From a virus, in the IMG/VR virus record IMGVR_UViG_3300002091_000022: a DNA stretch of 64,000 nt, one strand, 5' to 3'. The position numbers and the translations under genes were made by a program. Under the pieces are notes generated by a model. The model searched no databases, was not told the origin of the DNA, and saw only the letters and a list, made by a program, of their open reading frames with translations. Numbering within the stretch: the stretch's first letter is position 1; each line of letters begins with the position of its first letter. Below are positions 1 to 19,130 of this stretch, one piece after another.

Positions 1-34
1 TTTAGATTTGAGATAAATTTCGTATCTTTGCATT

Positions 35-313
35 ATGGATTTTGTTATACTAAAAGAGGGTAGCCCTACTTGGGAATATATATGGGATGAACTAGCTAAG
101 AACCCTATCAATGATGGCTTGGCGCATCGTTCCATAGCTATGAATGATGGTGAGGCTTGGCAGTATATGGGAACCATTGAATATGGTAATAAGTTCCTTA
201 CCGATTTTAGGCACAGGAAGCACCCGTATAATAGTTTACCTAAGTATATAACCATTGAGCATCCTGATGGGATACCTAGTGAGGATATAGTAGGCAGGTC
301 ACCGATTAAGTAA
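35..313 (+). CDS. hypothetical protein (probably leaderless)
   Basis: 92-aa ORF; TATCTTTG at 23-30 only 4 nt before the ATG. Confidence 0.75.
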   Translation: MDFVILKEGSPTWEYIWDELAKNPINDGLAHRSIAMNDGEAWQYMGTIEYGNKFLTDFRHRKHPYNSLPKYITIEHPDGIPSEDIVGRSPIK

Positions 314-392
314 TACCATATACACAAAAGTGTACATGATGTTTGGTAGTCTCGATAAATAACCTTATATTTGCATAAATAAACTTTTAGTT

Positions 393-737
393 ATGAATGA
401 TTGTATATGTGGTAATAAACATGAGAACTGTCTTCCTTATGTTACTAGTTCGGTAAAGGTTTGTCCTAAGTGTGGACGAATACATAACTTAACCGATAAT
501 GCAATATACCCACCAACTGAACGTAGTAGAGTTTGTGTTAATTTATCACCAATAGTAAGATGTTACTTTAATAAGCTACAGCTACAGGATGCACCCTATG
601 AAATAGAAAGTGATGCACCATTCATAGAGTTGAATGTTGACATAGCTGAAAATGTATGTGCGGAGTTACTGGAGAAAGGGATTGTTGATTCCTATTCCAT
701 TCCTGACATTTCAAACATACCAATAATATTTATATAA
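393..737 (+). CDS. hypothetical protein with Cys-rich N-terminus
   Basis: CICG...C...CPKC motifs; cassette promoter at 342-373. Confidence 0.75.
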   Translation: MNDCICGNKHENCLPYVTSSVKVCPKCGRIHNLTDNAIYPPTERSRVCVNLSPIVRCYFNKLQLQDAPYEIESDAPFIELNVDIAENVCAELLEKGIVDSYSIPDISNIPIIFI

Positions 738-769
738 CCTTAAAGCATACGTTTAATTTAGATGAATAC

Positions 770-797
770 AACCTGCGGTTTCTACCGTGGGTTTTTT
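770..797 (+). terminator. intrinsic terminator
   Basis: aacctgcgg-tttcta-ccgtgggtt followed by a T-run. Confidence 0.65.
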
Positions 798-898
798 TAT
801 GTTAAAGGCTGCAAATATAGGTTTATTTTTGGTTGTTACTTATATCCTACACGATTATTTTGTACATCTTATATCTTTGCAGTCTAAAATTATAAGAC

Positions 899-1174
899 AT
901 GAAAAAAAGATTGATTAAAGCATTGTACTATTTGAATGAAGGTGAGGGCATTAGTTTAGGTTATGATACATTCCTGACTGGTTTATTAGACGGGTCGGAA
1001 AAGATATATGGGTTTGCTAGATTAGATAATCTAATAGTGGTATTGAACGGTAGTAGTAATTATTCAATAGATTATCTAACTGGAAATGATTTAAGTTATA
1101 TCTTTAAGCATTCCCTTATATATGATAATATTGTAGGCAGAATATATGACATAAAAAAAATTGAAGAAATATAA
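899..1174 (+). CDS. hypothetical protein
   Basis: 91-aa ORF with cassette promoter at 859-879. Confidence 0.75.
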   Translation: MKKRLIKALYYLNEGEGISLGYDTFLTGLLDGSEKIYGFARLDNLIVVLNGSSNYSIDYLTGNDLSYIFKHSLIYDNIVGRIYDIKKIEEI

Positions 1175-1230
1175 GATTATATTTGGTGGTATCAAAAATA
1201 GTCCTATATTTGCATTCTAAATTAAAAGTT

Positions 1231-1953
1231 ATGCAAACAGAAAATGTTATCGAAAGTAAAGTAGTTAATCCGTTAAGCAATGATTTTAGCAAAAAGAAAA
1301 GTAAGGCTAAAAAGTTTTTACAGCAAAACAGAATAAAAGAGGAAATTGCTGAAAGTGGTTTATTAAGTGGTATAGTTCCATCGTTGGCGTATGAATGTGA
1401 CCAGGAGGAAATTTTAAAATCATTGAACCACAATTTTAAATTTCTTATGATTGACAACGATGTTGTAACGTATAAAAAAATGGTTAATATCGCCCTTGAA
1501 AAGTTTCCTGACAATCCCCCTTGTTTTCATTTAGGTAATTTGAGTGAGATTATTTTTAATGCTAAAGAAAACGATTTTACCCATTGCTTATTTGATTATT
1601 GTAAGGGTTTTGAAAAACATAGAAATGAAGTAGTACATACGCTACAAAATAAAATAGTTGTGGTTGGTGGGTTAGTTTTCTTTACATTTTGTTTGCGGAA
1701 TCCTAGTCACGAACACACAGCGTTTGTTAACGAAATGACTGGTTATTCAAACCCTAAAATGAAACTGGTTAGTATTAAAACCTATACTGATGTTAGAAAG
1801 GCTAGACTTATCGAGGAAGCGGCAACCTTGCAAGCATATCGTACATTCTTGCTTGGCGAAATAGGTAATGAACGTTGTTGGCGAATTAAAGAAATTGAAA
1901 CATATCGTGACGGTGCGCCTATGGCATTGATAATATTAAAACGTGTTAAATAA
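1231..1953 (+). CDS. putative class I SAM-dependent methyltransferase-like protein
   Basis: Start moved to 1231, 18 nt after TATATTTG. FLMIDND, HLGNLSEII, HCLFDYC and GGLVFFTF follow the motif order of a Rossmann MTase, but the glycine loop is degenerate. Confidence 0.45.
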   Translation: MQTENVIESKVVNPLSNDFSKKKSKAKKFLQQNRIKEEIAESGLLSGIVPSLAYECDQEEILKSLNHNFKFLMIDNDVVTYKKMVNIALEKFPDNPPCFHLGNLSEIIFNAKENDFTHCLFDYCKGFEKHRNEVVHTLQNKIVVVGGLVFFTFCLRNPSHEHTAFVNEMTGYSNPKMKLVSIKTYTDVRKARLIEEAATLQAYRTFLLGEIGNERCWRIKEIETYRDGAPMALIILKRVK

Positions 1954-2014
1954 AATAAATTTGGGGGTATTGAAAAATACCCCTATCTTTGTATCCTAAA
2001 TAAAAATAAACGTT

Positions 2015-2575
2015 ATGCAAAAGTATCAATTAAGTAATGGTAACACTTTACAAGTTATCAATGATAGCAATCCTGAAAGTCCCCGTACTTGGAGTAACTT
2101 AGGTAAAATGGTTTGTTTCCATAGAAGATATTCACTTGGGGATAAACACGATTTTAAGCAAGGTGACTATAATGGTTGGGATGAACTAAAAGCGGCTATC
2201 CTTAAAAAAGAAAATGTTGCCGTTATACAGCCTATGTATATGTATGACCATAGTGGTATAACTGTATCGACTAAGCCGTTTAGCTGTCCTTTTGATAGTG
2301 GACAAATAGGGTTTATCTACATTACCAAAGAAGCTGCTAGAGAAGGCTTTATGGTTAAGAACGTTACGGCTAAGATAAAGGAAAGACTATTGGTTAATCT
2401 AAACGGTGAAGTTGAAACGTATGACCAATATTTAACTGGTGACATTTACGGTTTCAAAGAAGTTGATAGTGAGGGTAATGAAGTGGATAGTTGTTGGGGG
2501 TTTTATGGTGACAATCCAAAAACTAATGGTATGAGTGACCATATAGATAGTGAGGTATTAGATGAGATAAAATAA
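2015..2575 (+). CDS. conserved phage hypothetical protein
   Basis: PESPRTWSNLGKMVCFHRRYSLGD...YDHSG...DSGQIGF...DSCWGFYG, a pattern I recognise from phage/mobile-element hypotheticals. Confidence 0.8.
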   Translation: MQKYQLSNGNTLQVINDSNPESPRTWSNLGKMVCFHRRYSLGDKHDFKQGDYNGWDELKAAILKKENVAVIQPMYMYDHSGITVSTKPFSCPFDSGQIGFIYITKEAAREGFMVKNVTAKIKERLLVNLNGEVETYDQYLTGDIYGFKEVDSEGNEVDSCWGFYGDNPKTNGMSDHIDSEVLDEIK

Positions 2576-2632
2576 AAATAAATTTGGCTATGTGAAAACA
2601 TAGCCTTATTTTTGTAATCTAAATGAAACGAT

Positions 2633-2821
2633 ATGAATCAGTATGATATAACACTTGGAACTGGTAAGAGAACAGTTTTTGCTGATAACCATATTAAAGC
2701 ATTTGAAAGTTTGGGATATGGTAAAGATTATAAGATTACTTCAACTAATAAAAAATCTTGGCAAATAACGTTAAATGGACAAGTGGGGCATAAGAGAATT
2801 TACACTATAAACCAATTATAA
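2633..2821 (+). CDS. hypothetical protein
   Basis: ORF 18 nt after a cassette -7 box. Confidence 0.7.
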   Translation: MNQYDITLGTGKRTVFADNHIKAFESLGYGKDYKITSTNKKSWQITLNGQVGHKRIYTINQL

Positions 2822-2879
2822 AATAAATTTGGTTGGCAAGTAAAATAGTCTTATATTTGCATCACTAAATTAAACGGTT

Positions 2880-3200
2880 ATGGAAAAGTTTGTATTATCA
2901 TCTAAGACAATCATTAATACCTATTGGTGGAATCATGGCAGTAAGACAAAAGACTTTACTGGTACGATTGATGAGTGGTTAACGTTTCATAAGGTTAAGG
3001 TTACTAGGTTAAGACGTAAGAACGTATTACCCCGTTTCAAGTTTGATTTTACTGTTGGTAGGCATACGGTTTCGCTTACAACTGAAAGTAACGATTTTGA
3101 AGATGCAGCCCTTTATATCATAAGAATGTGGATAACCTACTTAGGGGATAAAGCCATGATTGTTACTGATTTAAGAGAATATAAAATAAACTGGAGATAA
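2880..3200 (+). CDS. hypothetical protein
   Basis: ORF with cassette promoter. Confidence 0.75.
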   Translation: MEKFVLSSKTIINTYWWNHGSKTKDFTGTIDEWLTFHKVKVTRLRRKNVLPRFKFDFTVGRHTVSLTTESNDFEDAALYIIRMWITYLGDKAMIVTDLREYKINWR

Positions 3201-3251
3201 ATTTGGTGGTTACCAAAAATACCCTTATCTTTGCAGTCTAAATAAAAAGTT

Positions 3252-3548
3252 ATGATACCGAAATGGGTTTTTGATAGCGTTAATGCTAGGGTAATACTTG
3301 AAGATGATAGTGAGGCTATTTTCTATACCGATACATTAAGTTGTTCTGATAGTGTTATTGAAAGGGTTGTTGAGATACACAACAATAGTAAACAAGAAAG
3401 TCTTGATTTGCTAGATTCTACTGAACAATATTTATTACCTGAAATTAAACAATATTTAATAGATGAAACAAACTGTAATGAGGATGATAAGGATTATCTT
3501 ATAGAAGCTATTTTCAACTATTATCAAGTTAAATGGTTTTGTTTATAA
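3252..3548 (+). CDS. acidic hypothetical protein
   Basis: ORF 18 nt after the -7 box; D/E-rich. Confidence 0.75.
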   Translation: MIPKWVFDSVNARVILEDDSEAIFYTDTLSCSDSVIERVVEIHNNSKQESLDLLDSTEQYLLPEIKQYLIDETNCNEDDKDYLIEAIFNYYQVKWFCL

Positions 3549-3584
3549 AAATACCCTTATCTTTGCATTACTAAATTAAATAAA

Positions 3585-3854
3585 ATGAAAAAAATTAAGA
3601 GTTTATTTGTATCAGCCTTGTTAATGGCTTGGAGAATGATTAAAGCACCGATTATGGGTCGTGTAGCGGATGCTGTATGTGATTACGATTATGAAGTTGG
3701 TGGTACTGTATGTTATCCAACGAATCAGCCATCATTTAACGAATGGTGCGAAATGTTTAACGTGTCAAAAGCGTGTCCGAAAGTAATTGTTATGAGTAAG
3801 GAACAAGTTGCCGACAAGTTAGGTATTAGTTCATCTAATCTAAGAATAATCTAA
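3585..3854 (+). CDS. hypothetical protein
   Basis: ORF with cassette promoter whose -33 box lies in the upstream gene end. Confidence 0.7.
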   Translation: MKKIKSLFVSALLMAWRMIKAPIMGRVADAVCDYDYEVGGTVCYPTNQPSFNEWCEMFNVSKACPKVIVMSKEQVADKLGISSSNLRII

Positions 3855-3926
3855 AAAAAGATTTGTTAGTTTCAAAAAAAGTCTTATCTTTGTGTTCTCA
3901 TATTAATTAACAATAAAAAAAACGTT

Positions 3927-4253
3927 ATGCCTAAAATCGGTAAAAAAAGTCCTGCTGAATTAGCAGCCTTTACAGTAAAGAAAATCAAGTTAGAAGCTGA
4001 AAAAGCCTCTAGGATGGTTCAAGTAGAAGAACTTAGTAAGTACATTAAATTTGGTCATGTTGGTGTCATTGACGGTGAACAAATTGCCGCTCGGTTAACT
4101 ACGTTGAAGCATGAAGAAGCCGCCGCTAAAGCTGACTTGGATGCACTTGAAAAGGAAAGTTGCGAAATGGCAGAAGAAGCATTTGAACACATCTTTGGTA
4201 ATGTGTTTGGTGGTATCTTTGACATTTTTGAAAAAGATGCTGAAAAGAAATAG
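3927..4253 (+). CDS. hypothetical helical protein
   Basis: ORF with cassette promoter, followed by a terminator. Confidence 0.75.
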   Translation: MPKIGKKSPAELAAFTVKKIKLEAEKASRMVQVEELSKYIKFGHVGVIDGEQIAARLTTLKHEEAAAKADLDALEKESCEMAEEAFEHIFGNVFGGIFDIFEKDAEKK

Positions 4254-4270
4254 TAGTATCCCCTGTTAAT

Positions 4271-4298
4271 AAAAGCCTACTGTAATAGGTAGGCTTTT
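4271..4298. terminator. bidirectional intrinsic terminator
   Basis: aaaagcctac-N8-gtaggctttt perfect 10-bp stem. Confidence 0.75.
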
Positions 4299-4404
4299 AT
4301 TCCTAACGATTTAAAGTTTGCCATAAGATGAAACGAATTGTTTATTTATTCATAGCGGCTATTAGTTTAATTGAAGTATTAAGCATGGTCATATACATTG
4401 TAAG

Positions 4405-4524
4405 ATGAAAAGATTAGTACTGGCTCTATTGGTTTGTTTGAGTTTAAGTAGTTGTGTTGTTAGGCATCATAGAATACACCACCACTTTAGACGACCACCT
4501 TGCCATTGTGGACCAATATTTTAA
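4405..4524 (+). CDS. small lipoprotein (39 aa, not in ORF track)
   Basis: MKRLVLALLVCLSLSSC signal/lipobox, then a His/Arg/Cys-rich tail ending HFRRPPCHCGPIF; the stop abuts the next -33 box. Confidence 0.65.
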   Translation: MKRLVLALLVCLSLSSCVVRHHRIHHHFRRPPCHCGPIF

Positions 4525-4577
4525 TTTGGTTGGTAATGAAAATTACCTTATATTTGCATCACAATAAAACATACAAC

Positions 4578-4914: not shown

Positions 4915-4998
4915 ATGAATATTTTTATTGGTATCTGTTGTATTGTAGTGGCCGTGTTAATAGTTGGATTTATCTATTATAAATGTCCTACAAATTAA
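4915..4998 (+). CDS. small single-TM peptide (27 aa)
   Basis: MNIFIGICCIVVAVLIVGFIYYKCPTN; the stop abuts the next -33 box. Confidence 0.5.
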   Translation: MNIFIGICCIVVAVLIVGFIYYKCPTN

Positions 4999-5050
4999 AT
5001 TTGGTGGGTAACTAAAATACCCTTATCTTTGCATCATTAAATTAAACGTT

Positions 5051-5386
5051 ATGAGTAAGGTTCGATTAACAAAGCAATCCTTAATACCAATAGTAAATGC
5101 TCAACTAGTAAAAAGTGAATTACCATATACTGTTGTTAATGTTGAAACAACTAAATATACTGCTGACCAATATGAAGCTGGGGCGGCTCGGATTGTGTTT
5201 AAATTGAAACATGATGTTATTGTGGGTGAAGTAATACCTTTCAAAATGTTTTGTATGTATTCAATTAAAGAATTACAAGAACATTGTAATATTGGATATG
5301 AAATTGTAATTAACCGTATTTCGGCTGCAAGTTCCTTTCAAGAGAAATATCGTGTTGACCTTAAAAGAATAAATGAAACTGTATGA
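5051..5386 (+). CDS. hypothetical protein
   Basis: ORF with cassette promoter. Confidence 0.75.
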   Translation: MSKVRLTKQSLIPIVNAQLVKSELPYTVVNVETTKYTADQYEAGAARIVFKLKHDVIVGEVIPFKMFCMYSIKELQEHCNIGYEIVINRISAASSFQEKYRVDLKRINETV

Positions 5387-5973
5387 TAGACTTATTTAAA
5401 GACAAACAATTGGTTTTCTTGGAGAAAGACTATAAATGCCCTGCTAGTCAAGATAGCATTGATTATGGTATTAGGTTTTTAGATACTTGGCTTGAATTGC
5501 CTGACGAACAAGTTAACGCTATGATTGTCCATTATCAGTTTAATCAAATGGATAGAGATGAACTGGCAGCTATCATATTCAACCCTAATAACATTATCGT
5601 AACATATTCTGTATATGTACAAGGTAGCGATGCAATCTTCAAAAAACTAATGGCTACTACTGGTCGAAATGATGTTAAAGGGTTAACCTACATTGATGCT
5701 AGTGGAGCGTTAATAAAGTATCTAAATAGAAATCTTAGGGATGTTGAAAAGGATTTATATGATATTATTTCAGCTATTAATTCAAACAATATAATAACTA
5801 TCAATCACGGTGACATTCGAGGCTATGATGCGGTTAAACCTCAACTATTGAAGATTGACATTAAAGGTGCTTATCAAGATTGTGTGAGTTTAATTGAACT
5901 AAAAGAAGATAACTTTATACCGATTGATAAGAACTTATTTAATATAGGCAAAGAAAGGGTAAGAAATGTATAA
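5383..5973 (+). CDS. hypothetical protein
   Basis: ATGA overlap with the upstream gene (translational coupling). Confidence 0.75.
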   Translation: MIDLFKDKQLVFLEKDYKCPASQDSIDYGIRFLDTWLELPDEQVNAMIVHYQFNQMDRDELAAIIFNPNNIIVTYSVYVQGSDAIFKKLMATTGRNDVKGLTYIDASGALIKYLNRNLRDVEKDLYDIISAINSNNIITINHGDIRGYDAVKPQLLKIDIKGAYQDCVSLIELKEDNFIPIDKNLFNIGKERVRNV

Positions 5974-6027
5974 ATAAATTTGGTAGTATCAAAAATAGTC
6001 TTATCTTTGTAGCCTAAATTAAATGTT

Positions 6028-6786
6028 ATGAAATTTGTTAAGTTACAATTAAACCATTTTACTGTTGAACCTAAAGATAAAGTTCAATGGCGTTTATGCC
6101 TTGAAACAAGCGAGGATATTAGAAATTACAGTAAGTTAGATGCTGAAAAGATTTTTACCGCTTATCTACATAGTGATAATGAAAAGCACCCTCCCGAAGG
6201 TAGGCTATCTGCCATAATGCGATTATTGGATAGTACAAGACGTTGCCTTAAAGAAGGTGAAGTAATGTACCCTATGATTGAAATTGCAAACATTTGTGAT
6301 AGCAAGGCTATTGGTATGGAAAAAATACTTAAACATAGTCCTGTATTGGTTAATATGGTTGGTGGTTATTGTGATTATAACGGTTTTGTTAAGCAATGGA
6401 ATTGTGACATACTTGAAGAAATTGTAACCGATGGAATTGGGTTTCCTGTTGAAATAAAAGAAAGTGACGTACTGGTACTGGAGAATAACAGTTCAATAAC
6501 CATTACTGTATCAGATTATCTAAACCATAACAATATTACTGATTATGCGGTTATCAAGTTACTAAAAGAAGTTGATAGTAACTTAGTTAAAAACGCTATC
6601 ATTCGTGCCAACACAATAATAATCGAAAGTCAATTTTTAGACAATATGCAAAATGAAAGATTTTTGATGTTGTTTGATTCATTACCTAAGAAGCGTATTG
6701 TGTTATTCAGTACTAACTTCGCTAAACTCAAAGAATATTCAATGTTTAAAAGTATTTCAGAAAAGCATGAAATAATATTTGGCTAG
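6028..6786 (+). CDS. hypothetical protein
   Basis: 252-aa ORF 18 nt after the -7 box. Confidence 0.8.
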   Translation: MKFVKLQLNHFTVEPKDKVQWRLCLETSEDIRNYSKLDAEKIFTAYLHSDNEKHPPEGRLSAIMRLLDSTRRCLKEGEVMYPMIEIANICDSKAIGMEKILKHSPVLVNMVGGYCDYNGFVKQWNCDILEEIVTDGIGFPVEIKESDVLVLENNSSITITVSDYLNHNNITDYAVIKLLKEVDSNLVKNAIIRANTIIIESQFLDNMQNERFLMLFDSLPKKRIVLFSTNFAKLKEYSMFKSISEKHEIIFG

Positions 6787-6827
6787 TATCAAAAATACCC
6801 TTATCTTTGTATCCTAAATTAAATGTT

Positions 6828-7088
6828 ATGGCAACGAAAGTAAAATTTTTGGTACACAAATGGAACGGCGAACTTTACGCTTTTTTCCCACAATTAAGGT
6901 ATGCGCCTAATGGACATCGTAATGACCTTAAAACTGGTATCGTTCAGACCTCAACATTAACTGGTAGCCAATTAGTTAAAACTGGTATTGGATTTGAGTA
7001 CGTTGAACAAAGTCGAAAGGCAACTAAGAATGAGTATCACGATTTTAAAGCTAAACTTATTCAAAATAATCTAATAGGTTGCGCTTAA
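6828..7088 (+). CDS. hypothetical protein, paralog of the N-terminal half of 7909..8385
   Basis: Start corrected to 6828 (MATKVKFLVHK); shares FLVHK..ELxAxFPQL and EYVxxSRxATxxEYxD. Confidence 0.7.
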   Translation: MATKVKFLVHKWNGELYAFFPQLRYAPNGHRNDLKTGIVQTSTLTGSQLVKTGIGFEYVEQSRKATKNEYHDFKAKLIQNNLIGCA

Positions 7089-7785
7089 CGTCACGGTTTA
7101 TATAACTGCAAAGCGGACGAAGATTGGTGTAATGATTTAATCTAATTACATCATCTTCGTTAATAGCTGAATCAACTGGAATGATATGGTCAACATCCCA
7201 ACCGTAATCGGCTGTACCATTGTATAAACCTTTATTTTCCCATGACATCCACGGTTCAAATTGACCCTCAAGATGTTCTTTGAACTGCTCGAAAGTACAA
7301 CCTAATATTTCAAAAGTCCTTGATTTTTTAGTGTACCCTTTACGTTTAATTGAACTATTAATTAATGTTCGCATATTGCAAGCTAAACCAAACAGCTTAT
7401 CGTTTTTACGTCTTTCTCTCATATAAGTGTTTAGTTTATCTCTGTTAGTATCTCTATAGATTTTAGCTTTAGCTTTAATAACATCTTGATTAGTATCCCT
7501 ATATTCCTTTGTCTTAATTAATATGGTTTCCTTATTATTTATATAATACTTTTTAAGACTTTTACTTGTTGACTCCTTAACCTTATCAGGATTATTTTCT
7601 CTATACTCTTTATGTTTAGTTAATATAGTATCTTTATTAGCTTCATAATGTAAACGGTTTTTTTCATTCATTAACTCTTTATTAGCTTTATAATACTCTT
7701 TCTTTTGAGCAGCAATTTTCTCTTTAGCTTTTAATTTGTAGGCATCGTTACAGGCTTTTTGTTTTACTGGGTCTTTATATGGCAT
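7057..7785 (-). CDS. HNH/EndoVII-like homing endonuclease with N-terminal KxYRxxNxD repeats
   Basis: LGCTFEQFKEHLEGQF..MSWEN..WDVDHIIPV..NHYTNLRPL; ATATTTAT upstream at 7800-7807. Confidence 0.75.
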   Translation of the reverse strand: MPYKDPVKQKACNDAYKLKAKEKIAAQKKEYYKANKELMNEKNRLHYEANKDTILTKHKEYRENNPDKVKESTSKSLKKYYINNKETILIKTKEYRDTNQDVIKAKAKIYRDTNRDKLNTYMRERRKNDKLFGLACNMRTLINSSIKRKGYTKKSRTFEILGCTFEQFKEHLEGQFEPWMSWENKGLYNGTADYGWDVDHIIPVDSAINEDDVIRLNHYTNLRPLCSYINRDVKRNLLDYFE

Positions 7786-7908
7786 AATTTCTCTTTATAA
7801 TAAATATCATAGAAAAGAGTAAAAATTCATAAATCTTTACGATACCCAAAAATAAATTTGTTTGGTATTAAATATAGTCTTATATTTGCAATCTAAATTA
7901 TAAACGTT

Positions 7909-10869: not shown

Positions 10870-10904
10870 TTTGGTGGTATCAAAATAAACCCTTATATTT
10901 GTGT

Positions 10905-11000
10905 TCCAATTGGTTACGAAGGATAAACTTAATGGTAGCCTCACAAGGTTCGAGAGTGGGTAACAGGTGGCGTTACTCATCCATTAAGTTTACTTTCATT
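10905..11000 (+). ncRNA. candidate structured RNA (three-way junction) with its own cassette promoter
   Basis: 12-bp perfect stem 10924-10935/10981-10992 enclosing hairpins 10937-10950 and 10956-10980; promoter at 10870-10901. Confidence 0.5.
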
Positions 11001-11013
11001 TAAACTATAAAGT

Positions 11014-11202
11014 ATGAAGAAATATCGTATCTATGTTATTAACGGTACACCAGCGTTCTATAATAGAATAATTGAATGTACAGGAATGGTTGAAAGTACC
11101 AATGGTTATTATCGCTTCTATAAGGATAATGGTAGTGCTGCCAGTAAGACTATTGCCTTATATCCCATTATGCACACGATTGTTGAACTGATTGAGGATT
11201 AG
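11014..11202 (+). CDS. hypothetical protein
   Basis: 62-aa ORF downstream of the structured leader. Confidence 0.7.
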   Translation: MKKYRIYVINGTPAFYNRIIECTGMVESTNGYYRFYKDNGSAASKTIALYPIMHTIVELIED

Positions 11203-11231
11203 ATACACAAAAGTGTACATAACATGACATT

Positions 11232-11685: not shown

Positions 11686-11802
11686 AATAGTTTAATTTAA
11701 TTAGGCTGCAAATATAGTGGTATCTTTCCAGTTAAACAAATAAAAAAATAAATTTGTCCAGTATCAAAAATACCCTTATCTTTGTATCCTAAATTAAATG
11801 AT

Positions 11803-12135
11803 ATGAGTGCAGCACTAAACGAAGTAATTAAGAACACGGTACAACGTGATTTCGATGCAAAAGAAACATTGCAAGTATTAACAATTAACAAACCAATTTA
11901 TTGGTCTTGGGGTGTATCTAATAGGTATGCTGATAAGAACTATTTACTCTTAAAGGTTTCGGGTCACCACCATAAGGGTTATGTATTAATTACCCTAAAC
12001 TATAATGATACATACAAGGTTAGTATTGTTAGTTATAGGGGTAAACTACTCCAAACATTTGATGAAGTCTATTTTGACCAATTGACTGAAATAATAGATA
12101 ACCGTATTGAGAAGATAGCTAACTATACTTATTAA
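11803..12135 (+). CDS. phage hypothetical protein
   Basis: Start corrected; WSWG..LLKVSGHHHKGYVLITL..NDTY. Confidence 0.8.
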   Translation: MSAALNEVIKNTVQRDFDAKETLQVLTINKPIYWSWGVSNRYADKNYLLLKVSGHHHKGYVLITLNYNDTYKVSIVSYRGKLLQTFDEVYFDQLTEIIDNRIEKIANYTY

Positions 12136-12210
12136 TAGTTTATCTAATCTGAAAAATAAATTTGGCTATGTGCAAACATAGCCTTATTTTTGCACTCTAA
12201 ATAAAACGGT

Positions 12211-12771
12211 ATGAGTACTAAAGTAAAACATTTCTTATCTAGTGATTTTGTTGATACCTACAAAAATATTAAGAAGGGCGAAGTTGTAGAGTATGAGAAT
12301 AAAAGGTATAGGGTAATTTGGATTGTAATGGAACTAGGCGAAGCAATCATATTCTTACAAAAGATTAAGAAAGACGGTAAGCCATACAACAACCTTTCAC
12401 CCTTTGGCGTTAAGTATAACAAGCTAAAAAATATTGAAGCAGTTAGTTTAATGTTTCCACAGTTTGATTGGACGTATAACAAAGATAATGACGGTTATTT
12501 TGCCACTAAGCAAGTAAACAGGATTGATAAGAGGTTGGCTGATAAAAGTCGTGTATCATATTACACTATTTATATCTTCATTAGTAGCTTATCTGAAAGG
12601 AATGGTACTAGGTATGCAATGTGTTGGCAAAAGATTGAAATTACCCGTTACAGGTGCAGAAATAGCCATGAAGCAGAATTTAACAAGTCATTCGTTTATG
12701 ATGCTAGTTTAGATAAACTATTAGAAAAGTTAAAGGCGGCTACTGATATGAATAAGTTTGTAACTAAGTAA
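12211..12771 (+). CDS. hypothetical protein
   Basis: ORF 18 nt after the -7 box. Confidence 0.78.
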   Translation: MSTKVKHFLSSDFVDTYKNIKKGEVVEYENKRYRVIWIVMELGEAIIFLQKIKKDGKPYNNLSPFGVKYNKLKNIEAVSLMFPQFDWTYNKDNDGYFATKQVNRIDKRLADKSRVSYYTIYIFISSLSERNGTRYAMCWQKIEITRYRCRNSHEAEFNKSFVYDASLDKLLEKLKAATDMNKFVTK

Positions 12772-12828
12772 AAATAAATTTGGCTATGTGAAAAAATAGC
12801 CTTATTTTTGTATCCTAAATTAAATGAT

Positions 12829-13335
12829 ATGAGTAACTACTTAACACCTGAAAAAAAAGCATACTATCAAAATGAGTTTGCTAAAGTACTACAATGTAAA
12901 GATACTGATTGGGATTTAGATAAAGGATTATTAAGTATCCTAACCGAAATTAATAAGAATCCAAACATACAAACAATACTCTCAAAACGTAGTGAGAATT
13001 TAACTAAAAGCAATGATAGTTATTTACATTTCACTTTTACTAAAGAAGTTGAAGAAAAGTTGAAACGCATTTTATGGCGTATGAAAACAACATTTGAAAG
13101 GAAAGGTAATGGTAACGGTCTGGGTGTAAAATACTATGCTGCTGAACATTTTTCCGATATGGAAGTTGACGAAAGTGAGGTTGACCAAAACATTAAAAAC
13201 CTTGATTGTGTTACTAATGTAAAGAATTATATTGATATTGATTCGTTATTTGTACAGTTATTTAGCTTTAATGAAAGGGTGCATGAATCGTTTTGGGAGA
13301 CACTTAAAAAAGAATTAGGTAGTGTCACAAAATAA
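12829..13335 (+). CDS. hypothetical protein
   Basis: Start corrected to the in-frame ATG 18 nt after the -7 box. Confidence 0.78.
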   Translation: MSNYLTPEKKAYYQNEFAKVLQCKDTDWDLDKGLLSILTEINKNPNIQTILSKRSENLTKSNDSYLHFTFTKEVEEKLKRILWRMKTTFERKGNGNGLGVKYYAAEHFSDMEVDESEVDQNIKNLDCVTNVKNYIDIDSLFVQLFSFNERVHESFWETLKKELGSVTK

Positions 13336-13364
13336 CCTTATTTTTGTACTCTAAATAAAACGGT

Positions 13365-13559
13365 ATGAGTAACTATACAACTGAACATAAACATATTAGC
13401 AAAATTGTATCAGGTGACACAATAATGCACAACGGTGAAATGAAAACCGTTACCAATACAAATATCAAACACGATGCCTTTATGGGTACTTCATTATTTG
13501 GTGACAGTTATAATATTGGTTACAAATTGGTTGAGGTTCTTAACTTCAAAACAAAGTAA
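13365..13559 (+). CDS. phage hypothetical protein
   Basis: HISKIVSGDTIMHNGEMKTV..FMGTSLFGDSY; cassette promoter. Confidence 0.75.
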   Translation: MSNYTTEHKHISKIVSGDTIMHNGEMKTVTNTNIKHDAFMGTSLFGDSYNIGYKLVEVLNFKTK

Positions 13560-13616
13560 AAATAAATTTGGTTGGTATCAAATATAACCTTATCTTTACA
13601 CCCTAAATCATATTAT

Positions 13617-13829
13617 ATGTTATTCATTGAATGGTGGAGCGGTTTATCGCTTAATGAGCAAAGAGAATACTCTAAAAAGCATTTAGATTGTTACTACTAT
13701 GCTTGTATATGGGATTACAGCCTAAGTAAGTATGTAAAGGATAGTCTATTCTGTAAAATTATAGAAATAGTTTGGGATAATGAAATAAATTTGGCGGAAC
13801 CAAAAAATAGCCTTATATTTGTACCCTAA
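13617..13829 (+). CDS. hypothetical protein
   Basis: Start corrected; the 3' end reads through the next promoter repeat. Confidence 0.6.
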   Translation: MLFIEWWSGLSLNEQREYSKKHLDCYYYACIWDYSLSKYVKDSLFCKIIEIVWDNEINLAEPKNSLIFVP

Positions 13830-13839
13830 ATTAAAAGTT

Positions 13840-14064
13840 ATGGAAGGACAAAATTATTACGAAGGACAGTTGAACAACATTGAGGTTGGTAAGACTGAAT
13901 TTGCACCAACGTTCAAAATATTTGCAAATGGTAATGGTGCGGACACTAAACACTTATCATTGAATAATGATAGTGCTACTGAACTAGTGAAGTGGTTATC
14001 AAAGAACTTTGATGTAAGAGGGGTTGATGCTTACCCGACACTATTTGCACTTAGTCTAAATTAA
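13840..14064 (+). CDS. hypothetical protein
   Basis: Start corrected. Confidence 0.75.
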   Translation: MEGQNYYEGQLNNIEVGKTEFAPTFKIFANGNGADTKHLSLNNDSATELVKWLSKNFDVRGVDAYPTLFALSLN

Positions 14065-14115
14065 ATTTGGTAGGTAACTAAAATACCCTTATCTTTGTAT
14101 CCTAAATTAAATGAT

Positions 14116-14433
14116 ATGGCAAAGAGTAAACATTACACAGGTTCGGATTTAGGGCAAGACTTTCGTACCTTTTACACTAAGGAAACTAATCGGATTAAGA
14201 AGGTATTAACAGAAATGGGATGTACCAACATTGAGTTCTCTAGGCAGTTCTACTACTTTTATGGATTCTTTACAGCACCTTCGGGGCAAGTGTATTATAT
14301 GAGTTGTAGTGATGTAAGGCATTTTCCTTATGAAAAACTATTGTATCGTACAGCCGCAACTTATAAGGATTACACGGGCGGTTATAACTGTTACGTTAAA
14401 CCTGATGGCATTAAGTTTATCAATTTCAAATAG
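14116..14433 (+). CDS. phage hypothetical protein
   Basis: Start corrected; YYMSCSDVRHF..LLYRTA..KDYTGG. Confidence 0.8.
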   Translation: MAKSKHYTGSDLGQDFRTFYTKETNRIKKVLTEMGCTNIEFSRQFYYFYGFFTAPSGQVYYMSCSDVRHFPYEKLLYRTAATYKDYTGGYNCYVKPDGIKFINFK

Positions 14434-14509
14434 TTTTGGTTTTAGTCTCTCATATAAAAGGGGTTCTATGTCTATAGTGACCCCTATTTTTATAGTTTAG
14501 ATAAACTGT

Positions 14510-14569
14510 AAAATAAATTTGGTGGTATCAAAAATAGTCCTATCTTTGTATCCTAAATTAAATGATATG
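14510..14569 (+). promoter_or_regulatory. Representative cassette element: Bacteroidota primary-sigma promoter (-33 TTTG / -7 TAnnTTTG) plus 18-nt AT-rich spacer to the ATG
   Basis: aaaataaaTTTGgtggtatcaaaaatagtccTATCTTTGtatcctaaattaaatgatATG, near-identical to the copy at ~15747-15806. Matches the established Bacteroidota housekeeping promoter consensus. Confidence 0.9.
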
Positions 14570-14800
14570 TACACAGTACTACTAACAAAAGACAAGCAAG
14601 AAATTAAAATCCTTTCGCAACAATATGTTTGCGGAACGTATGTAACAATCAATGGTATGCAAACAGGCACTACTGAAAAAGAAGACATATACCATAAGAA
14701 GTTAAGAATTAAAGCAATAAAGCTGGGCGATACGATTACAGGCGGCTCGGTGATTGACTTAAAAAGTAAATTCCCTATCAATACATTTGTATCAAACTAA
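14567..14800 (+). CDS. hypothetical protein
   Basis: Start corrected. Confidence 0.72.
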   Translation: MYTVLLTKDKQEIKILSQQYVCGTYVTINGMQTGTTEKEDIYHKKLRIKAIKLGDTITGGSVIDLKSKFPINTFVSN

Positions 14801-14861
14801 TTAAAATAAGATTTGGCTATATGCAAATATAGCCTTATCTTTGTATCCTAAATTAAAGGTT

Positions 14862-15182
14862 ATGACTAATTATGCAATGTTTTTGTGTTCCCCTCTAGGT
14901 GAGAAAACTATTAATAGTTTATCTAAACGTAAAAAGGAGTTAACTATGTCTGACAAAATTGGTAAGATGTTTACCCCTGACATAAGGTTTGAGTTAATGC
15001 CCAAAACAGGTTGTTACAATGTACTTGGATTAAGTGAAGCAGGTAAACTATTCGTGACTAAGATTAGCGGCATTAAGATGGAGAAAGGTAAAATGATTGC
15101 TACTAGTTTAATTGAACCAATATATGAATATGCCTTGAAGCTAGAGTTAACTACTGAAAGGATTGACGGTGACGAAAATTAA
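14862..15182 (+). CDS. hypothetical protein
   Basis: Start corrected. Confidence 0.72.
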   Translation: MTNYAMFLCSPLGEKTINSLSKRKKELTMSDKIGKMFTPDIRFELMPKTGCYNVLGLSEAGKLFVTKISGIKMEKGKMIATSLIEPIYEYALKLELTTERIDGDEN

Positions 15183-15233
15183 ATTTGGTGGCTATCAAAA
15201 ATAGTCCTATCTTTGTATCCTAAATTAAATGTT

Positions 15234-15662
15234 ATGCAAAAAGTATTGGTTCAAGTAATTGTAAATGTAATGGTTAACCTAGACGATAATACGTTAATAG
15301 GTGAAGTAATGGAAAGTATGTCACATAGTTTCAGCTTAAACCAAAGTGATAGTAGTATTGCTAAAACTGAAATTATCCATTATGATGTTATACAAGCTAT
15401 TGATGTTCGTGATGGTGAAGGTTTCGGGATTAAGGTTGAGGTTTCCCCTCGTGACAAGTTCATTAATGAGTTTGAAGCTAGGATATTGGACGGCTTAACA
15501 GGTGATAGGTTATCCACTAAGGTTTCAACTTGTGATTATCCTAATTGGAGTATTGATGAGTACCAATATATGCCAACAGTAGCCGAAAGGTTAAGGGCTA
15601 AAGGGTACACCGTAAGTAGTAAAATTAATCATGGTGTAACTGATTGGTACATTAGTAAGTAA
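15234..15662 (+). CDS. hypothetical protein
   Basis: Start corrected. Confidence 0.75.
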   Translation: MQKVLVQVIVNVMVNLDDNTLIGEVMESMSHSFSLNQSDSSIAKTEIIHYDVIQAIDVRDGEGFGIKVEVSPRDKFINEFEARILDGLTGDRLSTKVSTCDYPNWSIDEYQYMPTVAERLRAKGYTVSSKINHGVTDWYISK

Positions 15663-15725: not shown

Positions 15726-15803
15726 ATTAGATTATCTAATCTATTAAAAATAAATTTGGTAGTATCAAAAATAGTCCTATCTTTGTATCCTAAATTAAAC
15801 GTT

Positions 15804-16268
15804 ATGAGTAAGGCTAAAAAGAAGGAGTTTATTGTAGTAGGTGAAACACCTAGAGTATCAGTAGAAATGGCTGAACAGATTCAGGGGTTACAAAAAAAAC
15901 TTATGACCCCCGAACATGTAGTTTTTGTTGGACAGTTATTTGAAACAGAGTTTGAGAAGGTAATGGTTTATCCCGTATTATTTAGCGTGGAGTTCTTTAA
16001 AGCATTAAAAAAATCTGTGTTGGAACTGATACCTAACACTATTATAGTCGTTGATAATATGTTTGATAGTGATGGGTGGTTATATATCGAACATTGTCCT
16101 AAAGACGATTATCCACGTCAAAAGACAATCTTCTTTAGAAATAAAATTAAATGGGAGGATAAAAATGAGTATGCTAAACGCTTACTACAATACTGCATTG
16201 ATAATCAGTTTAACATTGTACTACAAAAAAATAGAAGTGTGTTTCAATCGGAATTTGTATTGTATTAG
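15804..16268 (+). CDS. hypothetical protein
   Basis: Start corrected to the ATG 18 nt after the -7 box. Confidence 0.75.
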   Translation: MSKAKKKEFIVVGETPRVSVEMAEQIQGLQKKLMTPEHVVFVGQLFETEFEKVMVYPVLFSVEFFKALKKSVLELIPNTIIVVDNMFDSDGWLYIEHCPKDDYPRQKTIFFRNKIKWEDKNEYAKRLLQYCIDNQFNIVLQKNRSVFQSEFVLY

Positions 16269-16285: not shown

Positions 16286-16643
16286 ATACACTTTTGTGTA
16301 CATAGAAAATAAATTTGGTGGTTATCAAAAATACCCTTATCTTTGTATCCTAAATTATAAGTTATGTTAGACAGGACAAAAGCAGTAGATAAGGGTACAA
16401 TGGATTCAACGCTTAAACGGCTAATTAAATCAGCACCAAACTTTAATCCTAAAGACGTTAAATATGTTGATGACAATACTATTAATGGGGATTATGGGTT
16501 CGATTTTTACTCATGGAGTTACTGGGGTATGAGTGGTGGTGGTTCAATATGTGCAGTCGTTACTGATACATATAATAGTTATTTGAGGTTTCGGAAACTA
16601 CAAGAACAAGCACAAGGTTAAGAATATACACTTTTGTGTACAT
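16286..16643. repeat. ATACAC-W4-GTGTACAT palindrome (4 copies)
   Basis: 320-337 and 11203-11220 (AAAA core); 16286-16303 and 16626-16643 (TTTT core); each within 20 nt after a stop codon. Confidence 0.85.
16364..16621 (+). CDS. hypothetical protein
   Basis: Cassette flanked by identical 18-bp palindromes at 16286 and 16626. Confidence 0.75.
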   Translation: MLDRTKAVDKGTMDSTLKRLIKSAPNFNPKDVKYVDDNTINGDYGFDFYSWSYWGMSGGGSICAVVTDTYNSYLRFRKLQEQAQG

Positions 16644-16888: not shown

Positions 16889-17026
16889 TTAACGTAAATA
16901 CTTTGCTCTTGCATCCCCCCATGACATATTTGGGCAATGTTTAGTACTAGTACAACTACTGAAGTTAAATAATAACCACAATAAACCAATAAGGGCTAAT
17001 AACCTGATAACTAATAATGTTCGCAT
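16889..17026 (-). CDS. small lipoprotein (45 aa) on an inverted cassette (not in ORF track)
   Basis: MRTLLVIRLLALIGLLWLLFNFSSC lipobox; minus-strand promoter 17077-17045, ATG 18 nt downstream. Confidence 0.7.
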   Translation of the reverse strand: MRTLLVIRLLALIGLLWLLFNFSSCTSTKHCPNMSWGDARAKYLR

Positions 17027-17318
17027 AACTTTTAATTTAGAGTGCAAATATAAGGTTATTTAATCTATTGAAACAAATTTATTTTTATCTACACTTATAT
17101 AGTAATAGATAAGATAAACCATTAAAAAATAAATTTGGTACTTTCAAAAAATAGCCGTACCTTTGGGGTTTATCCTTGAAAGGATATTGTTAACAAGATG
17201 TTAAAGGACGTTAATACTTTAAATAAAATAAAAAAAGATTAGTTCAATTCAAATTAAACCCCTATCTTTGCACTGCCTTAGCGATATTGCAAGGGTAAAA
17301 CAATCTAAATTTAAAGTT

Positions 17319-18197
17319 ATGTTAAACGTACAAAATGTTAATTTGAAAGGTGGTACTATCCAACAGGACAACATTTTTGTTGATTCTAGTGTTAAAAGTG
17401 TTAATGAGTTAACAGGTTTTGAAGCTATTAAGGGTAAAGAAAATTTAGTTATTAGCAATGGCAAAGTTGTTAATATGGTATCAAACAAGTATGGACATTT
17501 GCCAAATGAAAAGCTATTTTTGCCATGTGAGGAACAACTTATAAATGCTGACATTCAGTATTTGACACGGTCTATTAACAAAAATGATTGCAGTTTTGCA
17601 GTAGATTACATCTTAAACGATGACACTTTTAACGTTGCTATTAATGGCAATATAAAGGACAAAATTCGTCCGATGTTACATATTGTAAACAGTTATGATG
17701 GTAGTGCCAAAACTAGTGGTTCTTTTGGCTTTTTTAGAGAGGTTTGCAGTAATGGCTTAAACATTGCTACAACAAAAGTAGGGTTTAGTGTTAAGCATAG
17801 AAACAACGTTGTTGAAGTTGTTATTCCTAAACTTGAATTGTTAGTAAAGGAATTTATGAGTAATGAGTATTACACTTTAGAAAAAAAGTTTGAAGTATTA
17901 GCGGCGAAGGAATTAAACGGTATTAATGAAGTACAGGCTTTTGTAAAAAAAGTTTGTGAGGAAACAAAGGTTTTCAAATTTGAAGCCAGCGACAAAAACC
18001 CTTTACCTTCATTAAATTCTAATATCGTAATTGATAGCATTATAAACGAAAGTTTGATGTTAGATGTTAAACCTAATATGTGGCTTGGTTTCAATGCTTT
18101 TAATGAGATACTATACAACAAGTTTAATAAGTCATTCGACATATTAAGGGAGTACGATAATACTATTTTTGAAACGGTGTTAGAGATGGCAAACTAA
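17319..18197 (+). CDS. DUF932-family (phage/plasmid TIGR03299-like) protein
   Basis: VSNKYGHLPN; LHIVNSYDGS..GFFREVCSNGL; start corrected to 17319. Confidence 0.8.
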   Translation: MLNVQNVNLKGGTIQQDNIFVDSSVKSVNELTGFEAIKGKENLVISNGKVVNMVSNKYGHLPNEKLFLPCEEQLINADIQYLTRSINKNDCSFAVDYILNDDTFNVAINGNIKDKIRPMLHIVNSYDGSAKTSGSFGFFREVCSNGLNIATTKVGFSVKHRNNVVEVVIPKLELLVKEFMSNEYYTLEKKFEVLAAKELNGINEVQAFVKKVCEETKVFKFEASDKNPLPSLNSNIVIDSIINESLMLDVKPNMWLGFNAFNEILYNKFNKSFDILREYDNTIFETVLEMAN

Positions 18198-18217
18198 AGT
18201 AGCTCGAAAACAAACAT

Positions 18218-18241
18218 AAACCCCTCAAATTTGAGGGGTTT
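18218..18241. terminator. intrinsic terminator
   Basis: aaacccctcaa-at-ttgaggggttt. Confidence 0.75.
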
Positions 18242-18435
18242 TTGCTTTTTAAGCCTATCCCATTAAAAACACATTGCAGCCCGAAAATAAGCCTTAAAAT
18301 CAATATTTTGATATACTTACATTTATTCACTCAGGATTAAAAAAAATATTGGTTTATTTAAAATATAATTTGTTTGGTATTAAATAAACCCCTATATTTG
18401 CACTCTAATTAATTAACAATCTAAATTTAAACGTT

Positions 18436-19041
18436 ATGGCAAAGGTAGCAAAAATTAGCGAAGCGGCTAAAGTTGAAACAAAAAAGTTAATCACTAAAGT
18501 AGTGGTTAAAACAATTAAGGGTACTTCTTTTGTAAGTGTGAGAGAATACCAAAACAGTAAAGGCGAAGTAAGCAATCAAACTTTTTTAGTTGGGTTCGAT
18601 TACGAAAATATGTTAAAAAATGACCTTGCAAAATTGAAGGCATTTGATGTTAACCTATTAGGCGAAGGGGTTAATAAAGAAGTGGCACAATTAGGCTTGA
18701 ATGAGTTAATTGAAAGCCTTGAAAAAAGACTATCTAGTGACGAAAATAAAGCACAATTGTTAAGCGAAGGGGATAGCACTATGATAAGAAGCGAAGCCCA
18801 AAAAAACGCTTATACGCCCGTTTGTAAGGGGTTAAAAATGCAAGATAATAACCTTTACATTTTTGGTCTTATGGTTAAAAAAACGGTGTTAGTTCCCATT
18901 GAGTATAAAAAAGAAAACAGTCAACCTAAAACCATTGCAAAAAAGCAAATTGAGAAGGTAGCGGACGTAAGAAGTAGAAAATATAAAATGTTCAAATTAG
19001 GCGGTTTGGAAACGTTGCAACTACAAGGGGTTTCAATCTAA
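18436..19041 (+). CDS. phage hypothetical protein
   Basis: 201-aa ORF with cassette promoter; last ORF of the array. Confidence 0.8.
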   Translation: MAKVAKISEAAKVETKKLITKVVVKTIKGTSFVSVREYQNSKGEVSNQTFLVGFDYENMLKNDLAKLKAFDVNLLGEGVNKEVAQLGLNELIESLEKRLSSDENKAQLLSEGDSTMIRSEAQKNAYTPVCKGLKMQDNNLYIFGLMVKKTVLVPIEYKKENSQPKTIAKKQIEKVADVRSRKYKMFKLGGLETLQLQGVSI

Positions 19042-19050
19042 CCCACCAAA

Positions 19051-19085
19051 TAAAGTTATCCACATACAAAGTGTGGATAACTTTA
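19051..19085. promoter_or_regulatory. 14-bp inverted repeat containing two perfect DnaA boxes
   Basis: TTATCCACA at 19056-19064 and TGTGGATAA at 19072-19080, within taaagttatccaca-N7-tgtggataacttta. Confidence 0.55.
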
Positions 19086-19130
19086 TCATTGCCATATCAA
19101 ATTAAACCCCTATCTTTGTACAGTCAACGA

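Follow-up and report, generated by a model that had tools for sequence, protein, structure and literature searches.

The hyperplastic regions of the T4-type phages RB49/phi1, T4/PST and KVP40/nt-1 contain promoter-early stem-loop (PeSL) cassettes, and gene exchange by crossover inside such units has been proposed for the PeSL of T4-type coliphages and vibriophages (PMC2839356, PMC4122927). In RB49, the promoter and terminator activity of these units and the formation of mini-circles were demonstrated experimentally (PMC2839356, PMC4122927). Here, we analyze a stretch of 64,000 nucleotides from the virus record IMGVR_UViG_3300002091_000022 (the window), whose first 19.3 kb carry short genes typically headed by a copy of a ~65-bp element with the features of a promoter. 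This array is a Bacteroidota counterpart of the T4-type PeSL cassettes and belongs to a kind already described for T4-type coliphages. We consider it probable that it is part of a hyperplastic early region of at least 42 kb in a T4-like phage of ~385 kb, in which promoter units double as homology patches for gene exchange.

Comparison with described systems

The initial annotation had likened the array to PeSL units, an apt analogy because the phage is T4-like. Both occur in T4-type genomes where small ORFans are densely packed between conserved modules, and both combine an AT-rich tract, a promoter for the host sigma factor (a predicted one in the array), a leader and the ATG. In either case, close relatives differ by insertions, deletions and replacements adjoining the units, with crossovers in the stretch from the downstream promoter box to the ATG, and junctions show degraded half-elements. 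In contrast to PeSL, the predicted promoter here is of the Bacteroidota -33 TTTG / -7 TAnnTTTG type instead of the sigma-70 type, and the genes lack a Shine-Dalgarno sequence. The stem-loop of PeSL lies upstream of the -35 box whereas here it is located inside the spacer, in ~16% of the copies, with the -7 box as its T tail. The scale is also larger, with ~70 units over at least 42 kb of the ~385-kb genome. Furthermore, a second, palindromic motif also marks junctions here.

The early promoters of T4 number ~40 copies and have a consensus extending well past the sigma-70 hexamers. Like the elements of the array, they form a class far more uniform than host promoters, the spacer and the upstream A/T tract included, and stand ahead of small non-essential early genes, but the sigma specificity differs. 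The host-takeover module of SPO1 is a cluster of small genes with several strong early promoters and terminators. It resembles the array as a small-gene cluster with several promoters; unlike the array, it is much smaller and belongs to an unrelated phage group, and we know of no description of cassette shuffling at its promoters.

Integron arrays share with this locus tandem single-gene units between repeats, some of which form hairpins, and a variable content. Unlike integron cassettes, nearly all of those examined here have a promoter-like element of their own and do not depend on Pc, the repeats are promoters and not attC sites, and crossover points vary. No integrase or recombinase Pfam family was recorded among the called genes from -23 to +62 kb (+22 to +62 kb being taken from the scaffold of a related strain, B), although distant homologues are possible, nor among 30 array open reading frames (ORFs) scanned. 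Sites of the attC type, imperfect palindromes of ~60-140 bp with a fixed crossover, were not found, the boundaries being ~65-bp promoters or a 20-bp palindrome. An integron is excluded because no integrase was found, the cassettes bring their own promoters, and neither an attC-type site nor a fixed crossover point is present. The epithet 'integron-like' of the initial annotation is therefore inappropriate, about half of the breakpoints also lying outside the element.

The promoter element

The strict pattern TTTG-N17-21-TAnnTTTG was scanned over the whole window with shuffled sequence as the null. There were 38 matches where the shuffles predict 4.1; the + strand of the first 19.3 kb accounts for 31 of the 38. 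An nhmmer profile of the ~65-bp element, trained on 23 copies, detected 36 copies at E<1e-3 (34 on the + strand, 2 on the - strand), all inside 342-18440. Four further copies are weak or partial: one is cut at position 1, and the others lie at 872, 17254 and 19104. From 19.3 to 64 kb, the best profile match reached only E=0.4, so no copy was recorded there. The count of about 40 copies given in the initial annotation thus agrees with the 36 profile copies and four weak or partial ones in 1-19.3 kb.

Aligned copies show a constant order: an A-rich tract (consensus aaaATAAA), the -33 TTTGG, a conserved spacer, the -7 box, the leader and the ATG. The spacer consensus is GtGGTATcAAAAATAnnC and the -7 box reads TTATcTTTG (general form TAnnTTTG), followed by tatCCTAAATTAAAnGtt up to the ATG; the two boxes are separated by 19-21 nucleotides. 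The distance from the -7 box to the ATG is exactly 18 nucleotides in ~21 copies (19 counted by script, together with 8843 and 13307), in line with the figure of more than 20 proposed earlier. Often, the A-rich tract supplies the stop codon of the upstream gene, frequently by its TAA. In the extended array described below, the gap between stop and -33 box is a single base in 17 ORFs and 5-8 bases in 15 more, and all five abutments quoted in the initial annotation (4524, 4998, 9085, 14064 and 15182) were recovered.

The boxes are of the Bacteroidota primary-sigma type and stand ahead of genes devoid of Shine-Dalgarno sequences. In Flavobacterium psychrophilum, the -7 box occupies -12 to -5 relative to mapped transcription starts (PMC9723704). 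This placement implies a leader of ~14 nucleotides in the array, A-rich and without a Shine-Dalgarno sequence. The elements thus appear to be extended-consensus promoters for the host primary sigma factor. A general sigma-70 promoter scan was uninformative (110 found, 98 expected).

Outside the array, a different signal precedes the genes. The 8-mer ATATTTAT is the most enriched in the 60 nucleotides upstream of ORFs (11 of 54, 0.83 expected) and is usually located 13-29 nucleotides ahead of the ATG of ORFs at 19.4-64 kb. It is a candidate late or middle promoter, resembling the TATAAATA of T4. The presence of ATATTTAT outside and of the element inside the array would fit a T4-like temporal program with the array as the class read by the host polymerase, that is the early class.

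Conservation of the element

The core of the element (-44 to -5) has a mean pairwise identity of 0.68 within the genome, at any distance, and of 0.67 with the array of a distant relative (G002) whose orthologous proteins are 31-75% identical to those of this phage (~50% overall). Between this phage (strain A) and the related strain C, orthologous cores differ at 13 of 383 positions (96.6% identical) and the surrounding DNA is 81-89% identical. The core therefore evolves 3-4 times slower than the flanking DNA. This slower change, together with a similarity that is the same within and between phages, argues for functional constraint. Each copy of the core is thus maintained by selection, most simply as a strong promoter with an extended consensus, comparable to the early class of T4. 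The initial annotation had judged the repeat more conserved than promoter function needs. With cores as alike between phages as within one, and similar elements in other contigs of Bacteroidota phages, the excess is better understood as a functional promoter of extended length with its leader than as a site dedicated to recombination.

The leader behaves differently. Its identity declines along the array, from 0.60 for copies less than 3 kb apart to 0.48 beyond 10 kb (permutation P<0.0005), a sign of local homogenisation. In addition, the two halves of the array have different leader consensuses, as do different genomes.

Mosaicism among related strains

Rearrangements were compared on assembled contigs. 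Joints supported by fewer than 30 nucleotides on one side (e.g. 1227>2852 and 3246>14509) are probable repeat artefacts and were ignored, and joints that go back were not counted as circles. Also uncounted are the foreign ends of two short contigs, which join the window at 5985 (L136, in an element) and 4426 (L135, outside), which are either real variants or assembly chimeras.

In three closer strains and one distant relative, the flanks are perfectly syntenic and the arrays are mosaic. The distant relative, G002, has a syntenic orthologue for every gene of the 19.6-36 kb region, while only ~8 of ~45 array genes are common; its array also shows one gene pair in swapped order and three copies of an HNH-like gene. 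Strain B, with a core 96-97% identical, has ~20 kb in place of the 38 kb found here, collinear and with 16 junctions. Segments of 72% to 100% identity lie side by side in this strain, which indicates a recombinational mosaic. An independent Logan contig of 5.3 kb, which stems from a different study, has the arrangement of strain B as well. Strain C (~87% identical) and the 15.7-kb contig X4 provide two additional arrangements, and cassettes are present or absent in every combination across B, C and X4.

Several of these differences delimit whole cassettes. The block 5057..9078 (+, eight genes) is missing in strain B and in contig X7. The corresponding junction, J12, is a hybrid of the elements at 4991 and 9078: the left copy continues through the spacer, the right copy takes over at the final base of the -7 box, and the two are identical over 17 bases in between. 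At J1, a hybrid element of the same build is found over a 395-bp cassette. The shared identity at these two junctions amounts to 17-24 nucleotides, and such seamless left/right hybrids place the crossover inside the repeat. At junction 15 of strain B, the element is a mosaic of those at 15184 and 16314 and heads a different ORF, while J2 leaves a half-element. In X4, 214 nucleotides replace ORF 1231-1953 exactly between two elements. A second block, 11807..14860 (+, eight cassettes), is missing in strain B by strain comparison; strain C has part of it and X4 most (11204-14120). The 301-bp insert 10903..11203 (+), present in strain C and missing in strain B and X7, is bounded by a -7 box on the left and a palindrome on the right.

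In total, 19 of the 44 breakpoint ends lie inside elements (13 of 32 against strain B, 6 of 12 against strain C), which cover 11.7% of the array, so that ~12% would be expected there. The element pairs flanking blocks absent from strain B rank in the 93rd-98th percentile for the longest identical run. Gain, loss and reordering of cassettes with breakpoints in the repeat, the check proposed in the initial annotation, are thus borne out. Its designation as a contingency module is contradicted: contigs of several samples and three data sources share the arrangement at 100% identity across as much as 20 kb, which does not describe a fast-switching locus.

One otherwise identical contig (L132/L140) carries a 22-bp deletion (11429-11450) that shortens ORF 11232-11519 from 95 to 74 codons.

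The palindrome and the HNH genes

The second repeat is a 20-bp palindrome, TGTACAC-W4-GTGTACA, found four times in the window against 0.13 expected. Its full form is (A/T)TGTACAC-(AAAA or TTTT)-GTGTACAT, with cores such as TACAC-AAAA-GTGTA. The motif scan placed the four copies, which have no strand, at 321..337, 11204..11220, 16287..16303 and 16627..16643. The second copy is the right breakpoint of J13; the fourth coincides with a breakpoint in the comparisons with strains B and C, and immediately beyond it, at 16655, the sequence of X4 sets in again. Further copies lie upstream at -7179 and -6794 and in L159/L148, L151 and G002. The palindrome is kept in all four relatives, is confined to the array, and is located just upstream of the -33 box or right after the -7 box. 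It underlies 5 of the 44 breakpoint ends while covering ~0.5% of the array, and some swapped segments have a copy on either side. An operator, a 5′ hairpin or a recombination site are its candidate roles.

The minus strand of the array harbors a family of HNH/endonuclease-VII-like genes whose position and copy number differ in every strain: 7057..7785 (-) in the window, 8867-9592 (-) in L159, 2037-2675 (-) in L150, 2715-3539 (-) in L157, and further loci in G002. They match a PHROG labelled endonuclease VII. On its PHROG match and its paralogues at other places in strains B and C and in G002, the window gene, with a product of 242 residues, is a probable free-standing homing endonuclease; it sits between the paralogous ORFs 6828-7088 and 7909-8385. 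Among six further minus-strand genes of related strains, Pfam gave HNH matches only, all sub-threshold. In strain B, additional endonuclease genes (HNH_3, GIY-YIG and NUMOD) are inserted immediately beyond the array, in the neighbourhood of those for DHFR, PTH2 and thioredoxin (L148 10793-12622 and 16409-17152; L161 6378-7097 and 13781-18456). The ClpB-like gene of strain B is split into three calls, one of them with a faint intein match; in the window it is a single ORF of 841 amino acids (33772-36297).

Hairpins in the spacer

A perfect stem of at least 6 bp (6-8 bp) is present in 11 of 69 spacers (~16%) compared with 0.9% of shuffles. The stems vary in sequence yet stay paired, as in GGGGTATA/TATACCCC, GGCTATGT/ACATAGCC and GGCTATAT/ATATAGCC, with others in G002 and L008, and those of the window are identical in strain C. 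They are located inside the -33/-7 spacer and not upstream of the promoter. Eight of the 11 fit a terminator-like pattern in which the T-rich -7 box serves as T tail, and these copies would probably end the upstream transcript and start the next one. A hairpin in all copies as the cause of spacer conservation is rejected since most copies lack a perfect stem.

Mechanism and alternative explanations

In the explanation we favor, each small gene, mostly an ORFan, would have its own ~65-bp expression unit, and the elements would fire without phage factors, by analogy with T4 early promoters. Element copies and the 20-bp palindrome would provide short homology patches across non-essential DNA. The general recombination of the phage would cross over inside these patches and thereby delete, insert or swap whole genes between co-infecting relatives, leaving the neighbours undisturbed, as has been proposed for PeSL. 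The crossover is located inside the element at two junctions, and the cassette is seen as the unit of exchange at many. Some observations weigh against this explanation. About half of the breakpoints lie outside elements, in coding sequence (J3 and J4, with 0-9 nucleotides of shared identity), on the palindrome or elsewhere. Those inside elements are partly built in, because elements fill most of the intergenic space and head every cassette, so that alignments tend to end there, and because selection spares recombinants with intact genes. A typical element pair shares only ~10 consecutive identical bases, which makes most pairs poor recombination substrates, and mosaicism could also come about through the homing endonuclease-like genes inside the array and close to it. 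Many samples share the arrangement at 100% identity across stretches of up to 20 kb, so turnover is slow on sampling time scales. In addition, ~84% of the copies have no hairpin, so the composite promoter-terminator is only a minority subclass, and the nucleotide sequence is the basis on which early timing and the activity of promoters and terminators are predicted.

It is unlikely that the repeats are only promoters without a causal role and that the mosaic results from homing-endonuclease repair, illegitimate recombination, or exchange through longer flanks with selection for intact genes. Strain-specific placement of the minus-strand HNH/endonuclease-VII-like genes, the extra endonuclease genes of strain B and the coding-sequence junctions J3 and J4 would be expected in that case. 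Moreover, as intergenic space is mostly element, junctions that keep genes intact must land in or beside elements whatever their cause. However, the seamless hybrids at J1 and J12 need a crossover within the repeat, the element pairs around deleted blocks are unusually alike, and with one HNH gene in 19 kb most junctions lie far from such genes. We regard as quite improbable that copy similarity mainly reflects recent copy-and-paste, by concerted evolution or tandem cassette duplication, and not selection on each copy. The decay of leader similarity with distance, leader consensuses that differ by array half and genome, and several paralogous neighbour ORFs agree with such copying. The core contradicts it, being equally similar at all distances and within and between genomes; furthermore, the 96.6% identity of orthologous cores extends to individual spacers in strains that differ by 11-19% around them.

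The homology patches of the favored explanation could also be replaced by DNA structure. There is only a slim chance that hairpins and palindromes extrude as cruciforms and are cut by the endonuclease-VII/HNH-like proteins encoded in the array; giant Bacteroidota phages would then possess a self-contained, recombinase-free cassette exchange system. Very improbable is a dedicated integron-like or structure-specific system in which the hairpins or the palindrome are the sites cut by a phage enzyme such as these proteins. Stems that differ in sequence and are always paired would suit it, as would a palindrome conserved in all relatives, over-represented at breakpoints and bracketing swapped segments, and HNH genes whose PHROG match is an endonuclease VII. 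Against it stand the lack of any recorded integrase, resolvase or transposase family in the gene range given above, cassettes with their own promoters, crossover points that vary by junction, elements that are mostly hairpin-free, and palindromes that do not consistently adjoin HNH genes.

The exchange of genes between promoter units, as favored here, would carry the PeSL idea of expression signals as shuffling linkers over from T4-type phages that infect Proteobacteria to a giant T4-like phage of a Bacteroidota host, whose promoters and translation signals are of quite another type. It is natural strains occurring together in lake metagenomes, and not pairs studied in the laboratory, that provide the evidence. 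The ~70 natural variants of one strong (predicted) promoter and leader constitute a parts list for expression in Bacteroidota. Similarly, the ~90 small, strain-variable cassette genes form a bounded library of candidates for host-takeover and counter-defence screens.

Genome identity and extent of the array

Genes downstream of the array encode T4-like Portal_T4 (gp20, 1.3e-75), Gp23 major capsid (2.5e-71), Terminase_6N large terminase and Peptidase_S77 (gp21-type prohead protease) proteins. Others specify DHFR, RNA ligase, polynucleotide kinase (PNK), RNaseH_like, thioredoxin and thymidylate synthase. By its gene content, the genome is that of a T4-like phage; its promoter boxes are of the Bacteroidota type, and its predicted size of ~385 kb matches scaffolds of 384-386 kb from a 96-99% identical strain. 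The window sequence is also found on a contig of 710,173 bp from JGI 3300002092 (L131, L138, L158), which may be a concatemer, a strain-merged assembly or a much larger genome.

Contigs from ENA, JGI and Logan, assembled from several samples, match the window at 100% identity for as much as 20 kb, and dozens of samples contain the array. Position 1 is not its beginning, contrary to what had been assumed: identical contigs prolong it upstream, with elements from at least -22,279 to +19,300, so that ~70 copies are spread across at least 41.6 kb. Upstream of the window, the array encodes a Lar-type restriction-alleviation domain, another DUF932 protein and a member of the GP88 family, and the leaders of the elements there are unlike those inside the window.

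Neither 1-20 kb nor 20-44 kb had a megablast match in the phage collection, and the nearest virus record (G001) spans only 44-64 kb and carries no element. Exact 18-mer and degenerate scans of IMG/VR returned, among the matches listed, mostly single promoter-like matches. Arrays of the same build, with 8-17 promoter units each, are present in at least four other IMG/VR contigs (L008, L063, L032 and L075). They have in common the A-tract, TTTGG, TTATCTTTG and the tatcCTAAAT leader, while the spacer consensus changes from one contig to the next and hairpins occur in the spacers of some. The promoter-unit array architecture thus seems widespread in Bacteroidota phages.

Elements along the window

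Unless stated otherwise, the elements below lie on the + strand and were located with the profile. The window starts with the 3′ part of a truncated element (1..34; -7 box TATCTTTG and leader) that precedes ORF 35-313. Promoter elements follow at 342..382 for ORF 393-737 (strict pattern and profile), 1174..1234 for ORF 1231-1953, 2819..2883 for ORF 2880-3200 and 3193..3255 for ORF 3252-3548; a weak or partial copy (872..902, profile E=0.03) stands before ORF 899-1174. Hairpin analysis also identified 8-bp spacer stems at 1952..2018, where the stem is perfect, and at 2574..2636. They precede ORF 2015-2575, which is kept in G002 and matches phrog_6186, and ORF 2633-2821. The element of ORF 3585-3854 (3539..3587) has a degenerate -33 box and is the right breakpoint of junction 11 against strain B. 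ORF 3927-4253 has an element with a long leader (3853..3930) and is followed by a canonical intrinsic terminator read directly from the + strand (4270..4300). An element with a 6-bp hairpin (4520..4562) precedes a hydrophobic ORF of 21 codons, 4579-4644.

The left partner of J12, the 4-kb deletion junction, is the element of ORF 5051-5386 (4991..5055). Its right partner, at 9078..9141, has a -7 box ending in A and a 6-bp hairpin and heads ORF 9137-9412. Between them, elements are located at 5971..6031 (ORF 6028-6786), 6769..6832 (ORF 6828-7088), 7847..7913 (ORF 7909-8385), 8377..8441 (ORF 8438-8860, with an 8-bp hairpin found by hairpin analysis) and 8843..8907 (ORF 8903-9085). Further along, the array continues with a long-leader element at 9772..9823 for ORF 9844-10056, and with elements at 10136..10198 for ORF 10195-10518 and 10576..10630 for ORF 10627-10869.

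The element at 10861..10908 is followed, on profile and folding evidence, by a structured RNA instead of an ATG. This RNA (10918-10997) belongs to the 301-bp insert, has a stable fold (-30.4 kcal/mol, z=-3.4) and lies beside a 62-codon ORF, 11014-11202; the insert is possibly a small RNA cassette, either mobile or regulatory. A minus-strand element, 11690..11741 (strict pattern and profile), drives ORF 11506-11685 (-) by its position. The element of ORF 11803-12135 (11745..11807) is the left breakpoint of J14.

Within and around the second block, elements precede ORF 12211-12771 (12151..12214, 8-bp hairpin by hairpin analysis), ORF 12829-13335 (12770..12832, 6-bp hairpin, perfect in strain C), ORF 13365-13559 (13307..13368, degenerate -33 box), ORF 13617-13829 (13558..13620), ORF 13840-14064 (13782..13843), ORF 14116-14433 (14057..14120), ORF 14567-14800 (14508..14570) and ORF 14862-15182 (14803..14865, 8-bp hairpin by hairpin analysis). 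The element of ORF 15234-15662 (15174..15237) has a mosaic counterpart in strain B. It is followed by those of ORF 15804-16268 (15746..15808) and of ORF 16364-16621 (16305..16367), the latter in a cassette bracketed by the palindromes at 16287 and 16627.

At the right end, a minus-strand element (17022..17085, strict pattern and profile) is found next to a variant (17125..17185; -7 box TACCTTTG) that has no ATG nearby and is kept in strains B and C. The DUF932 gene (17319..18197, +), identified with Pfam, is present in all strains and is only ~72% identical between A and B. An element with a long leader (18363..18440) heads ORF 18436-19041, and a final weak match resembling a -7 box (19104..19120, profile E=0.53) marks the right edge of the array.

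The cassette genes

The initial annotation described the array ORFs as unrelated and mostly unknown. This is largely correct, as 29 of 30 tested have no Pfam match and four have PHROG matches, and only seven paralogous pairs exist among 92 + strand ORFs. These pairs, several of them formed by adjoining ORFs, and one pair of minus-strand HNH-like genes qualify the word 'unrelated'. Hints of host-takeover or anti-defence roles are limited to the Lar-type domain and the two DUF932 genes, and such a role for the cassettes is a reasonable guess only.

The 201-residue, lysine-rich product of ORF 18436-19041 is conserved in the clade, with 93 homologues down to ~35% identity. Neither sequence nor fold matched the PDB (Foldseek best E 0.09, VIA best Z 5.2), and a protein-pattern scan of IMG/VR recovered G002 only. 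The predicted fold (pLDDT 78) comprises two halves, each a β-sheet with a helix.

The tRNA and Rfam searches gave no tRNA and no family at gathering score, with sub-threshold Rfam matches near 18.2 kb only. An ORF-free region at 4690-4895, without ARAGORN or Rfam call, has a very stable predicted fold (-63.6 kcal/mol, z=-3.7) and is 94% conserved in strain B. A motif resembling the T arm of a tRNA (GGTTCGATTCC) lies within this region, and a terminator-like hairpin (4865-4885) closes it. Around it lie four very short hydrophobic ORFs of 21-39 codons (4329-4409, 4405-4524, 4579-4644 and 4917-4998), one with an LSSC lipoprotein-like signal, which are candidate small membrane peptides.

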